A stretch of DNA of 64,000 bases from Escherichia coli (GTDB taxonomy: Bacteria; Pseudomonadota; Gammaproteobacteria; Enterobacterales; Enterobacteriaceae), in the NCBI RefSeq assembly GCF_013315695.1, contig NZ_CP054353.1, one strand, 5' to 3'. The stretch's first letter is position 1. The number at the start of each line of letters is the position of its first letter. This document shows, one piece after another, positions 25,333-63,824 of the stretch. Both the position numbers and the translations under genes were made by a program. Under the pieces are notes generated by a model. It made no database searches and was not told where the DNA came from. It was given only the letters and a program-made list of their open reading frames with translations.

Positions 25333-25366
25333 TTCGACCAGTCAGCAAATATGCTGACTGGTCGAA
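25333..25366. repeat. perfect inverted repeat (15-bp stem, 4-nt loop) just downstream of elaD
   Basis: TTCGACCAGTCAGCA-AATA-TGCTGACTGGTCGAA; no adjacent T-run; further CTGAC/GTCAG repeats at 25380-25410. Confidence 0.6.
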
Positions 25367-59912: not shown

Positions 59913-59955
59913 CTTTCATGCCTGGCAATTATTACCAGGCATGAAAGCGCGTTAT
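59913..59955 (+). terminator. rho-independent terminator after yfcH, at the left edge of the inserted operon
   Basis: CTTTCATGCCTGG-CAATTATTA-CCAGGCATGAAAG followed by CGCGTTATTTACC. Confidence 0.65.
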
Positions 59956-59961
59956 TTACCT

Positions 59962-61401
59962 TTATCTACGAGCTACTTCGGGCGCGGCATAGCGAGTGCC
60001 AAAACGGCTCCATTTTGCCAGAAAAGCAAATAAAAGAGCGATCGCAAAGCAACTCAAATTAAAAAACGTCCACGGCAGGTAATCAAGTGTTGCAACACCA
60101 AGCGTTTTCGCCATAAACATCCCGGAAATAGTCCAGGGAAAAAGTCCTTCCAGCAAAGTGGCTCCAGACTCCATGGCCCGCGACATATTCACTTTATGCA
60201 ATTGATGTTCGTCATAGCACGGATCATACATGCTTTTGACCAGAAAAAAGCTAATGACGGCATTTCCAGTACAGGCCACTAATAATGTACTGGAAAACAT
60301 CGTAGCCAGAACGACGCTGGTTACAGAGCGTAATTTCTTAACCAGACGTTGCAGGACAATATTTAATCCGCCAGATGCCTCAAGTGCTGATGCAAATAAA
60401 AATGCACAAAGCATCACCACAATCGGACTGACCATAGAATAGATTCCGCCGCGATTGAGAAGCACCATAAGATTTTTAGCCACCAGCGGATCGCTGGCAA
60501 TACCATCAAATTGTAGTAACATGGTATCTTTAAAACCATTTACAGCGGATTGAACCATATCCATCCATGCAATCGGCTGAAATATTGCACCAATAAATAA
60601 AGCGAGGAACGAAGAGGCAATTAATACTACTGTAGTATCCCATTTTTTTAGCGCACCGAAGAACACCAGTAGTGCGGGAAGCAAACACAGCGGATTTAAC
60701 CAAAAAAGTCGCTGTAATACATCTCTCATAATGGCAATATTCTCAATTTGCTGATTCATTTCATTCAGGCCGCTTCCGGCCCACCAGAAGCCAAAACATG
60801 AGACGAAAAAAGCAGGAATAGAGGTATACATCATATTGCGAATACTTTGCCATAACTCGACGCCCGCAGCCATCGCTGCCATATTGGTGGTATCGGAAAG
60901 AGGCGATAATTTATCACCAAAATAGGAACCCGAAATCACCGCCCCGGCGGTAATCGGTAATGAAACGTCCATCGCCGCAGCCACGGCCATCAATGCTACG
61001 CCGATAGTACCCGCCGTACCCCATGATGTTCCGGTAAAAAGAGAGATACAAACTGTCACCAGGAAGGCTGTCAAATAGAGATAATGAGGGCTTACCATTT
61101 CCAGACCATATAAAACCATTAAAGGAATTGTTCCGGAAACTATCCAGCAGCCAATCAACATCCCGATAGAGAGTAAAATAAGCATTGCCGGAACTGCTTC
61201 TTTAATTTTACTCATAAATATATTAACAATATCTCTCCAGCGCGCACCATAATACCTGGCATAAAAAGCAGTAACCAACGTCACTACAATCAACACAAAC
61301 TCCACGGGGGCATTAAGTATCCCGACGCCAGCCAGGAACAATATAAAAATAATAGCCAGAATGATCATCGCCGAGCTAAAGGATGGCTGATTTATTGTCA
61401 T
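59962..61401 (-). CDS. NhaC-family (Na+/H+ antiporter superfamily) membrane transporter, substrate unknown
   Basis: 479-aa polytopic ORF with NhaC-like motifs (GTSWGTAG, GSYFGDKLSPLSDTTN); low GC; start overlaps upstream gene stop (ATGA). Confidence 0.8.
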   Translation of the reverse strand: MTINQPSFSSAMIILAIIFILFLAGVGILNAPVEFVLIVVTLVTAFYARYYGARWRDIVNIFMSKIKEAVPAMLILLSIGMLIGCWIVSGTIPLMVLYGLEMVSPHYLYLTAFLVTVCISLFTGTSWGTAGTIGVALMAVAAAMDVSLPITAGAVISGSYFGDKLSPLSDTTNMAAMAAGVELWQSIRNMMYTSIPAFFVSCFGFWWAGSGLNEMNQQIENIAIMRDVLQRLFWLNPLCLLPALLVFFGALKKWDTTVVLIASSFLALFIGAIFQPIAWMDMVQSAVNGFKDTMLLQFDGIASDPLVAKNLMVLLNRGGIYSMVSPIVVMLCAFLFASALEASGGLNIVLQRLVKKLRSVTSVVLATMFSSTLLVACTGNAVISFFLVKSMYDPCYDEHQLHKVNMSRAMESGATLLEGLFPWTISGMFMAKTLGVATLDYLPWTFFNLSCFAIALLFAFLAKWSRFGTRYAAPEVARR

Positions 61402-62615
61402 GGTTTCGTCCTTAGCGAGTCAAAAGCACGCTCCAGATCGGCAATTAAAAGAGCGGCATTTTCCTGCCCAAGCGAGAGACGAATTAATCCGCGCGGGATC
61501 TCCGCATCAACCAGTGCAGACTGATTATAACCACGGTTAGGTGAGATAATCAGGCTTTCATAGCCGCCCCAGCTACAGCCCGGTTTGAAAATACGGCAGG
61601 CATCGATAAAGCATTTCACTTCCTCAAAGCCGGCTCCTTTTAATTCGAAACTAAACAGTCCTGAAAAGCCACACATCTGGCGACGAATTATCTCTTTTTC
61701 CTTATCTGTAGCGCAGAGAGGATGACGTATATTTTCCACCTCATCACGAGTAGCTAACCATTCAATAACGTTAATCGCGTTATGCTGATGCGTTGCCATT
61801 CTGATCGGGAGTGTTCGTATACCACGTAACAGTAACCAGGCGCTAAACGGCGAAAGCACGGCACCTAATAGCTGATGCGAGAAATCACGAATGATGCTCA
61901 TCAATTCACGGCGGGTGATTACCACACCAGCTAACACATCACTGTGCCCGGCGAGATATTTTGTGCAGGAATGAATGACAATATCAAATCCCAGACTTAA
62001 CGGTTTTTGAAATAGCGGTGTCGGCCAGGTGTTATCAATTGCGGTGATAATCCCATAACGGGTCGCCAGTTGAGCTATCGCCTGTAAATCAACAATCTGC
62101 ATTGTCATGGTGCCGGGTGACTCAGCGTATATCATTCGGGTATTCAGTTTGATTTTTTGTTCAATAATATTGATATCGCCGTTGGAGATAATGTCATATT
62201 CAATATGGTATTTTTTTGCCAGGTTTTTAACTAATTCGATAGCCGGACCATAGATTTGATTAACTAATAAAATATGGTCACCGCTGTTTAACAAACCGAC
62301 CATCACTGCGCTGATTGCCCCCATGCCTGATGCAAAGCACCGCGCCTCTTCCCCCCCCTCCAGCAAAGCAAGTTTGGTTTCAACCATACTTACGGTTGGA
62401 TTTAAGCCGCGACTGTATATGTAACGCTGGGCTTCGTGACGCATATCATCACAATACTGCTGGTAATTCTTCTGCACAAAAAGACTGGTTTGAATAATCG
62501 GCGGCGCAACGGCACCGAAATACTCATCATGATTTTCATTTATACCGGAACAGGCAAGGTAATCGGATTCGGCAATATTTCCATCATTGAGTAACATGTT
62601 CTGATAACTGTTCAT
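61398..62615 (-). CDS. Cys/Met-metabolism PLP-dependent enzyme (cystathionine beta/gamma-lyase or methionine gamma-lyase family)
   Basis: 405-aa ORF with family motifs YSRGLNPT, FASGMGAIS, AIDNTW, DIVIHSCTKYLAGHSD (PLP-Lys), SPFSAWLLLRGIRTL; AAGGGA SD about 8 nt upstream of ATG; low GC. Confidence 0.8.
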   Translation of the reverse strand: MNSYQNMLLNDGNIAESDYLACSGINENHDEYFGAVAPPIIQTSLFVQKNYQQYCDDMRHEAQRYIYSRGLNPTVSMVETKLALLEGGEEARCFASGMGAISAVMVGLLNSGDHILLVNQIYGPAIELVKNLAKKYHIEYDIISNGDINIIEQKIKLNTRMIYAESPGTMTMQIVDLQAIAQLATRYGIITAIDNTWPTPLFQKPLSLGFDIVIHSCTKYLAGHSDVLAGVVITRRELMSIIRDFSHQLLGAVLSPFSAWLLLRGIRTLPIRMATHQHNAINVIEWLATRDEVENIRHPLCATDKEKEIIRRQMCGFSGLFSFELKGAGFEEVKCFIDACRIFKPGCSWGGYESLIISPNRGYNQSALVDAEIPRGLIRLSLGQENAALLIADLERAFDSLRTKP

Positions 62616-62861
62616 TTTATTTCCCTTATGTTTTTGTACAGAGAAATAGTAATATTATCATCTGGAAAAACCTTTGCACTTTTGCCAGTAACGGACTTGC
62701 CGTGGCAGACAATTAAAGAACAGATTGTAGGAACTCACATTTAAATCATATGGATTATGAATATTTTATTTATAAAGAAAAACATATATAAGCGACAAGT
62801 TAAAATACATTGAAGAAAGGGATAAATAAATGTGAGGAATATAGTTACGTTTACTACATGA

Positions 62862-62893
62862 CTGTCTCTTGCGGTCATGACTGCAAGAGACAG
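62862..62893. repeat. 32-bp near-perfect palindrome between the inserted operon and rpnB
   Basis: CTGTCTCTTGCGGTCA/TGACTGCAAGAGACAG with one central mismatch; 29 bp downstream of the rpnB stop. Confidence 0.6.
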
Positions 62894-62921
62894 ATTTAAT
62901 TAGAATAAAGTTCCACAGACG

Positions 62922-63824
62922 TCACTGCTTCTGGTTCAGAAGCTCCTCTGGCGAAAGTCGGGTCAGCGTCAGAACTAACTCTCGGTCTAAACCTCTCTCC
63001 AGCATCTCCTGAGCAATACGCAGGGCTTCTTCGCGTTTGCCCAGAATTAATCCATCATTCCGCCCTTCTTCACGTAATCTGTCAGCAATAGTCATCAGTT
63101 TCTCCTTTTCTTGTGGTGCGCGTTCCGCTATCTCACCAATAAATGCACGGAAACGCTGGGCATCTCCCGTTTGTAATACGTAATTAAACAGGGCTTTTAG
63201 CTGTCTGTCATTAGTGTTCCCTGTAACTAGCAGCGAAACAATTTGGTCGACTAATCCCAACAGATCGCGCTGACGAATATGTTTCTGAATTAACTCCAAC
63301 AGCGCCATTTTGCGATGTTGCATAATCTCGTCATCTGGCACCACGGTAATATCCACCAGCGGAAAAGCTGATGAATATATTTTGCGGGCTATAGCAGGCT
63401 CGGCAAATTCATCAAGCCAGCAGAGTGAATAAGGATAAGGACTTCTGCAACCATGATAAAACAGCATCGGGATCACCAATGGAAGCTCTTTATAGCCTGC
63501 ATCAAGATGGTTTTGCATCGCCGCAATGGAATAGCGCATCATGCGAAAAGCCATTAATTCTTCCGGCTTACTTTGGTGCTCTATCACCACATAAATATAA
63601 CCCGCTCTCTCCTGCGTTTTCACAGACCACAAGAGGTCGGAATAATATTGCCGCAGGTCTTCATCAATAAAACTGTTTGGTTCCAGTTTAAGCGTCGTCA
63701 AATCACACAGTTTGCGCAGCGGCGCGGGAAGATGAATATCAATAAAATCCCGCGCGGTGTCTGGATGGCGTAAAAAAGATTTAAATACCGCATCATGCGG
63801 CGTGGAAGTTGTCGATATTGTCAT
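62922..63824 (-). CDS. rpnB: Rpn-family recombination-promoting nuclease (YhgA-like, transposase_31 / PD-(D/E)XK)
   Basis: 300-aa ORF with the conserved N-terminal HDAVFKSFL motif of Rpn/YhgA-like proteins. Confidence 0.8.

Follow-up and report, generated by a model that had tools for sequence, protein, structure and literature searches.

A near-perfect palindrome downstream of rpnB in Escherichia coli is most likely a gene-end hairpin

What is a 32-bp near-perfect palindrome doing between rpnB and the operon that follows it in Escherichia coli? The sequence in question, CTGTCTCTTGCGGTCATGACTGCAAGAGACAG, is located at positions 62862–62893 of the DNA stretch analyzed here (hereafter the window, 64,000 nucleotides in length). 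An initial annotation had taken it for the edge of an inserted operon, and had considered it to be either the operator of a dimeric DNA-binding protein or a recombination or cleavage site, its position next to a nuclease gene being regarded as suggestive. We have examined these proposals along with the simpler one that the palindrome marks the end of a transcript.

The palindrome is built of two 16-nt arms with no spacer and with 94% complementarity. Its lone non-complementary pair, G62873/T62882, would be a G-U wobble in RNA of the + strand and an A/C mismatch in RNA of the − strand. The window sequence confirmed what had first been described, that is, one mismatch and perfect outer arms of 11 nt. 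The outer left arm, CTGTCTCTTG (62862–62871, + strand), and the outer right arm, which is the reverse complement of CTGTCTCTTG (62884–62893, − strand), are the same in both E. coli alleles discussed below, and the inner 12 nt (62872–62883) are paired in the present allele except for G62873/T62882. The arm sequence, for both arms, is CTGTCTCTTGCRGTCATGA. A stem-loop is predicted in RNA of either strand, with folding energies of −23.8 kcal/mol (z −4.1) for the + strand and −22.5 kcal/mol (z −2.9) for the − strand. The palindrome was the sole match in the 64-kb window, with none in 100 shuffles, and an Rfam search with it matched no family. Two further palindromes of the same class are present in the 64-kb window, at 59913–59947 and 25333–25366, each just 3′ of a stop codon, and so neither its size nor its symmetry is in itself remarkable in this setting. 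The one at 25333–25366 is a 34-nt near-perfect palindrome, TTCGACCAGTCAGCAAATATGCTGACTGGTCGAA, which lies 16 nt past the stop of a 403-aa ORF and lacks a U-tract.

The position of the palindrome relative to the surrounding genes is as follows. Gene rpnB (300 aa; 62922–63824, − strand) ends with a stop codon at 62922–62924, and its transcript would enter the hairpin after a spacer of 28 nt (62894–62921, − strand), which is of 42 nt in the second allele. Just 3′ of the hairpin on the rpnB strand there is an untranslated, G-poor stretch (62760–62861, − strand), rut-like and poorly conserved between alleles. Downstream lies a co-directional operon, the first gene of which encodes a PLP-dependent trans-sulfuration-family enzyme (PLP-lyase; 61398–62615, − strand) and starts at 62615, 246 nt from the palindrome, the second gene encoding an NhaC-type antiporter (59962–61401, − strand). 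The second long hairpin of this variable segment (59913–59947, not assigned to a strand) is located between the convergent genes yfcH and nhaC, and has a 13-bp stem with arms CTTTCATGCCTGG..CCAGGCATGAAAG. It is probably a transcript-end hairpin common to yfcH and nhaC. In the second allele its stems are identical and its loop is altered, the same pattern as that found in the palindrome. The rpnB/PLP-lyase spacer also contains a perfect 10-nt inverted repeat, CTCACATTTA / TAAATGTGAG, at 62734–62743 and 62827–62836, the two copies being 83 nt apart. The second copy (62827–62836) resembles ATGTGAGGCTAATATAG of a related lineage (L111) in opposite orientation, a likeness that points to a local rearrangement.

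With about equal weight for and against, we read the palindrome as a 3′-UTR stem-loop of rpnB, an RNA hairpin at the end of the rpnB message; more generally, it is probably a real, ordinary gene-end hairpin, and a functional one. The observations behind this reading are the structure, the position, the single-locus distribution, the conservation of the outer stem and the rut-like composition downstream, and its proposed mechanism is one of termination and protection. Transcription of the − strand would run past the rpnB stop, and 28 nt further on the RNA would fold into a hairpin of 10–16 bp. RNA release at the hairpin would probably not be intrinsic, because there is no U-tract: the rpnB-strand tail following the stem, UCAUGUAG, has 3 U in 8, short of the U-tract of an intrinsic terminator. 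The same had been noticed in the initial annotation, which saw no standard intrinsic terminator on the rpnB strand, and the terminator scan agrees in calling the + strand only. The loading of Rho would take place just 3′ of the hairpin, where the RNA is untranslated and G-poor, and transcription would stop before the PLP-lyase promoter; 3′–5′ exonucleases would then degrade the RNA as far as the foot of the hairpin, and the hairpin would protect the rpnB message. In addition, it would shield the PLP-lyase/nhaC operon, which has the same direction, against read-through from rpnB. The C/G ratio of the next ~100 nt of the − strand 3′ of the hairpin is 2.4–3.25, with 4–6 G per 78 nt; this RNA is AT-rich and G-poor and, with C at only 15–19%, not truly C-rich.

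Such an arrangement has precedents. According to Dar & Sorek (2018, PMC6061677), Rho-dependent 3′ ends of E. coli are found just 3′ of stable stem-loops that lack a U-rich tail, the rut sites following at a short distance, and these stem-loops protect against PNPase and RNase II. By the definition given there (PMC6061677), the palindrome has the properties of a protective stem-loop, as it is stable, lies past the stop codon and lacks a U-rich tail; untranslated, rut-like RNA with C>G is found just downstream. Compared with the stem-loops as described there (PMC6061677), the likeness consists of a stem-loop near the stop, no U-rich tail and C>G untranslated RNA after it, whereas the rpnB stem is unusually long and perfect (14–16 bp), is followed by AT-rich sequence and is predicted from sequence.

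The stem is stable and G+C-containing as in an intrinsic terminator (14 pairs, 7 of them G-C). We considered also that it may act as such on the + strand or in both directions, stopping transcripts that come from the operon promoter region and run antisense into rpnB. A consensus scan does call a + strand terminator, with the 14-pair stem and the tail ATTTAATT. However, no + strand gene or conserved small ORF is present upstream; the + strand tail, AUUUAAUU, is only weakly U-rich and is not kept in the second allele, where it is replaced by TATTATAG and a 14-nt insertion; and the terminator-like matches of the region (7, against a shuffle mean of 4.3, sd 2.0) are not clearly above expectation. 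We regard a + strand or bidirectional intrinsic terminator as quite unlikely. Two other candidate features were discarded: a promoter-like site at 62877–62906 (score 9/12) is no commoner than in shuffles and has its spacing broken in the second allele, and a small + strand ORF 5′ of the palindrome (13–18 aa here) is not kept in that allele.

The second E. coli allele, represented by one complete genome (R32_14_1F) and seven further contigs, is ~93% identical overall to the window over the whole segment, and its palindrome reads CTGTCTCTTGCGATCATGAAAACAAGAGACAG. The outer 10 + 10 nt and the central TCATGA are unchanged in the R32_14_1F allele. Four changes (one at 62874 and three adjacent ones at 62881–62883) break three inner pairs, leaving a stem of 10–11 bp and a loop of 10–12 nt. 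The flanks of the palindrome are identical between the two alleles at 57 of 87 positions (65.5%) and contain indels of 13 and 14 nt. Against this flank background, the identity of the palindrome (28/32) has a binomial probability of P = 0.005, and that of the outer arms (20/20) one of P = 2e-4. To judge from these two alleles, there appears to be constraint on the stem; protein binding could account for the conserved arms equally well. The adjacent end of rpnB is itself variable. RpnB is of 300 aa in the window and of 296 aa in K-12 and R32_14_1F, the difference being a four-residue block in the C-terminal domain, where DNA identity is ~80% (window 62922–63100; L119:5093–5300). For Rpn proteins a hypervariable C-terminal domain with four-residue repeats has been described (PMC10400941), the hypervariable repeats being those of the Rpn antitoxin domain, and the low identity at the rpnB 3′ end fits that hypervariable, repeat-containing domain.

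Where else is the palindrome found? The 32-mer is present in 68 of 5426 complete E. coli genomes, at one site in each and always in the chromosome (IAI39, for example), in a BLAST search in which matches shorter than ~19 nt are not detectable. It always accompanies the PLP-lyase/nhaC segment and is always placed between rpnB and the operon. An exact-pattern scan of metagenome contigs gave three copies, all of the same rpnB locus, and a BLAST search of plasmids gave chance matches only (E~9). Because there is one site per genome, the metagenome copies are of the same locus and the plasmid matches are those of chance, the palindrome is a single-locus feature and not a repeat. The search of other E. 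coli genomes that had been proposed, for the palindrome as a mark of insertion junctions elsewhere, thus led back to this one locus in all 68 of the 5426 genomes.

In K-12 the order is yfcH, 47 bp, rpnB, with neither operon nor palindrome. This K-12-type junction is found in at least 4686 E. coli genomes, counted where at least 80% of a 176-nt probe was covered, and the palindrome sits inside the segment missing from K-12-type genomes. In genomes whose RpnB is labelled E. marmotae, a 300-aa rpnB allele is joined to yfcH through the K-12-type 47-nt junction. These figures bear directly on the idea of a recombination or cleavage site marking an insertion junction, whether for RpnB, for a site-specific recombinase or for a transposase. 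The palindrome adjoins a nuclease gene, in a variable segment and 30–50 bp from the K-12/island breakpoint, and its 13-6-13 layout has transposase-type tips. However, the at least 4686 E. coli genomes with the K-12-type junction, like the E. marmotae-type ones, have rpnB without it, two other rpn homologs examined (L135, L137) have no similar palindrome downstream, and neither E. coli nor the 100,044 species genomes nor the metagenomes contain it at any other junction. There is no recombinase gene nearby. RpnA, moreover, cleaves without sequence specificity (PMC5350276). A cleavage or recombination site is very improbable, and the connection with RpnB drawn at the outset is not supported.

The history of the locus was approached through its relatives. 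The closest PLP-lyase homologs outside E. coli have 75–77% identity, and their contigs read ubiX-argT-hisJQMP-[PLP-lyase(-nhaC)]-...-yfcH-folX, the same chromosomal slot without rpnB. In those relatives the hisP terminator runs directly into the operon promoter region, and no CTGTCTCTTG palindrome is present. Homology of the upstream region between the relatives and E. coli fades at ~62780–62790, and for this reason the palindrome belongs to the rpnB-side DNA and not to the operon. As these related enterobacteria have the operon at hisP/yfcH without rpnB or palindrome, the PLP-lyase(-nhaC) operon looks ancestral, contrary to the view of the palindrome as the edge of an inserted operon. We infer from these comparisons that the operon is old at this locus, that rpnB and its 3′ region arrived beside it in Escherichia, and that most lineages have since lost the operon. 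A PLP-lyase/NhaC pair is also found in [Enterobacter] lignolyticus (L114:4421-7662), at a different locus near smpB, where it adjoins small HTH genes and a GmrSD-type gene; on account of this locus, the operon occurs also in island-like contexts elsewhere.

The same relatives help in judging whether a dimeric regulator, of the PLP-lyase/nhaC operon or of rpnB, uses the palindrome as its operator. The dyad symmetry of the palindrome would suit such a role, as would the fact that changes are confined to the bases between the outer 10-nt half-sites and the central TCATGA. However, the operon starts only 246 nt downstream of it, three related lineages (L111, L112/L113 and L134) lack it in front of their orthologous operon, and in the 64 kb there is no second site or half-site, nor is there a regulator gene in the segment. 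Furthermore, a different conserved dyad, TGCCA-N15-TGGCA, is located in the PLP-lyase promoter region at 62683–62707; it is kept in both E. coli alleles and recognizable in L111 and L134, and is a better candidate than the palindrome for an operator of the PLP-lyase operon. An operator function of the palindrome, as put forward initially, is very doubtful: its absence from the relatives and the lack of a second site in the window both speak against it.

The genomes without the operon provide a further view on the preferred reading, a hairpin at the end of the rpnB message. The finding of the same palindrome after rpnB in genomes lacking the operon had been named as the case that would point to a plain rpnB terminator. 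Literally, this is not what we found: in operon-less genomes a different conserved hairpin, CTGGCGGATGT...ACATCCGCCAG, occupies the equivalent spot after rpnB (L001:6583-6629; L123, L125–L127). Each of its arms is conserved at 11 of 11 positions between K-12 and E. marmotae-type sequences, the loop and the non-coding flank being ~50% identical; one arm lies within the coding end of yfcH and the other is non-coding. As judged from these sequences, the operon-less junction would support selection for a hairpin at the position after rpnB. On loss of the operon, this position came to be filled by a hairpin of another sequence. A K-12 Term-seq study (PMC7815308) gives yfcH 3′ ends at 2422635 and 2422637, on the + strand, in the yfcH/rpnB spacer, and a Rho-dependent (bicyclomycin) signal 200 nt beyond them. 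These ends (PMC7815308) belong to yfcH, on the opposite strand, and not to rpnB, and the K-12 data cover the replacement hairpin only. The K-12 yfcH/rpnB hairpin and the palindrome are alike in their equivalent position, in a stem kept while loop or flank diverge, and in the lack of a U-tract. They differ in that their sequences are unrelated and that one arm of the K-12 hairpin is in the yfcH coding end; also, the K-12 hairpin serves a convergent gene pair, whereas the palindrome lies between co-directional genes.

The sequence of the arms raises a separate matter. Both are identical to nucleotides 1–10 of the inside end of IS50R, which in a copy of Tn5 reads CTGTCTCTTGATCAGATCT; the tips point outward, so that the palindrome has IS50-like terminal sequences. 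For a given palindrome, a 10-nt tip match is expected by chance at ~1e-6 per comparator. To this extent the cleavage-site idea of the initial annotation retains some basis, the arms being the first 10 nt of an end cleaved by a transposase, the IS50 inside end; it is otherwise unsupported. Set against the IS50-subgroup end consensus, CW------Y---CA-A--W- (PMC2266710, Table 1), the palindrome agrees at C1, W2, Y9, A16 and W19, and lacks C13A14 in both arms and both alleles, with a CA at 15–16 (PMC2266710). The likeness to the IS50 inside end and to tip palindromes derived from it thus covers the first 10 nt, the outward tips, the total of 32 nt and the location tens of nt past a stop; in contrast, palindrome positions 11–19 do not match the IS50 inside end. 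Furthermore, IS50-type tip palindromes have arms of 14–15 nt and a 5-nt loop, whereas the rpnB palindrome is perfect to the centre.

No target duplication of 8–9 bp flanks the palindrome (ACTACATGA versus ATTTAATTA, 5/9), and none is present in the second allele either. Transposase remnants were not found by tblastn in the 64-kb window, and neither a second copy nor a source IS of the palindrome was found in E. coli, species genomes, metagenomes or plasmids. Several specific scenarios were tried and rejected. For a composite transposon carrying the operon, the 64-kb window offers no second end of the CTGTCTCTTG type, and the hairpin at the left border is unrelated. For rpnB as a passenger between IS50-like ends, the best second end is CTGTCCAAAGATAAAAACT (reverse complement of 63893–63911, in the hisP–rpnB spacer), with 12/19 matches, which by a binomial estimate would occur by chance at ~0.1–0.25 per spacer; no target duplication accompanies it. 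The idea that the 14-nt insertion of the second allele conceals a target duplication was dismissed, as this insertion does not abut the palindrome, and an active mobile element was dismissed in view of the palindrome being single-copy everywhere searched.

In order to see the arms in a wider context, one genome per species (100,044 species) was scanned for the pattern CTGTCTCTTG-N(0-30)-CAAGAGACAG. The scan gave 108 loci (L003–L110), of which 84 are palindromes of 31–38 nt, CTGTCTCTTGAtca...tgaTCAAGAGACAG, with length peaks at 35 and 32 nt, almost all from Gammaproteobacteria. The remaining ~24 loci, of 20–46 nt and from unrelated phyla, are about what chance would produce. Some family copies end full IS elements, the transposase of which is a clear homolog of Tn5 Tnp (1MUH, E = 1e-89) and has its last codons running into the hairpin. 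In an IS4/Tn5-family element of E. coli O157, one end is an inside-end-like hairpin and the other, CTGTCTCTTATACACA, is outside-end-like. In the element of E. coli O157:H7 FRIK2533 (L117:3002-4456), the hairpin end is at L117:3002-3034 and the outside-end-like end is CTGTCTCTTATACACAAATCC; a 7-nt direct repeat, AAGAGAC, is present once at the subterminal copy and once at the opposite tip, and deletion between these repeats would, on paper, yield exactly a 35-nt solo palindrome. Legionella gratiana has a repeat of ~330 bp in about 19 copies (L023–L041), which carry the 32-nt tip palindrome at the start and have their end near AGATGTGTAnAnG, which is outside-end-like; the repeat appears to be an IS50-derived MITE, with the palindrome at its end.

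Solo copies of the family lie mostly 15–75 nt past stop codons, often between convergent genes. Many of them (L043–L047, L053, L011, L057, L095, L108 and others) are centred in longer inverted repeats, either REP/BoxC-like, CCCTCTCCC..GGGAGAGGG, or terminator-like stems. A perfect 9-bp direct target duplication was seen in one solo copy only (L007). Of the 5426 complete E. coli genomes, 2466 (~45%) contain the canonical 35-mer. In the lldD-trmL spacer of strain 504239, a 35-nt solo palindrome (L116:2501-2535) is located between two BoxC-like repeats (L116:2470-2560), and K-12 has at that spot ~80 nt of unrelated sequence (L118:2040-2160); the difference is a replacement and not a simple insertion. 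A literature search with the 35-mer palindrome, or with the 10-mer and the word "palindrome", returned only Tn5 primer and vector matches, none of them as a genomic element.

Does the rpnB palindrome belong to this family? It cannot be filed as a member of the IS50-type tip-palindrome family, because the tests of C13A14, target duplication and copy number all fail; family members with a non-canonical interior are very rare (1/85). That it is nonetheless of IS50-type origin, a solo pair of transposon tips, is on the sequence comparison about an even call. Nearly precise excision of Tn10, as studied by Foster et al. in 1981, is reported to leave a short palindromic remnant of the transposon ends after deletion between short repeats. 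The likeness to such remnants is that of a short palindrome of transposon end sequence left in place, the event being only putative for the palindrome; the difference is that no flanking target duplication is kept at the palindrome.

The palindrome might then be functionless today: an old insertion, or a nearly precise excision, could have left a solo pair of IS50/Tn5-family tips behind as an inert relic. Besides the identity of the arms with nucleotides 1–10 of the IS50R inside end, its 32 nt fall on a length peak of the IS50-type family, the family is abundant in E. coli (2466/5426 genomes with the 35-mer), its solo copies share the location at gene 3′ ends, and the second-allele GATCATGA resembles the family interior GATCA. 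Yet the outer arms are far better kept than the flanks, which is unexpected for neutral DNA, and the missing target duplication and C13A14, the single copy and the failure to find a source element also weigh against it. We therefore consider a functionless relic unlikely. A bolder version, in which the palindrome is a domesticated, minimal IS50/Tn5 tip pair still recognizable by resident IS50-family transposases and serving as a breakable site beside rpnB that helped in the loss of the operon in most E. coli, is very unlikely; it would place the palindrome in a widespread, apparently undescribed class of 31–38-nt tip palindromes in, or replacing, terminator or REP hairpins at gene 3′ ends of Gammaproteobacteria.

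The result for this locus is mainly a corrective one: the hisP–yfcH region with the operon, once read as carrying an insertion, probably represents the older state, and the palindrome is most likely a hairpin at a gene end, and not a junction or the target of a nuclease. As such, it adds one case of a constrained stem-loop without U-tract at an mRNA 3′ end. If the family of IS50-type tip palindromes holds, it suggests that transposon ends may supply terminator-like hairpins, or that the elements target such hairpins.
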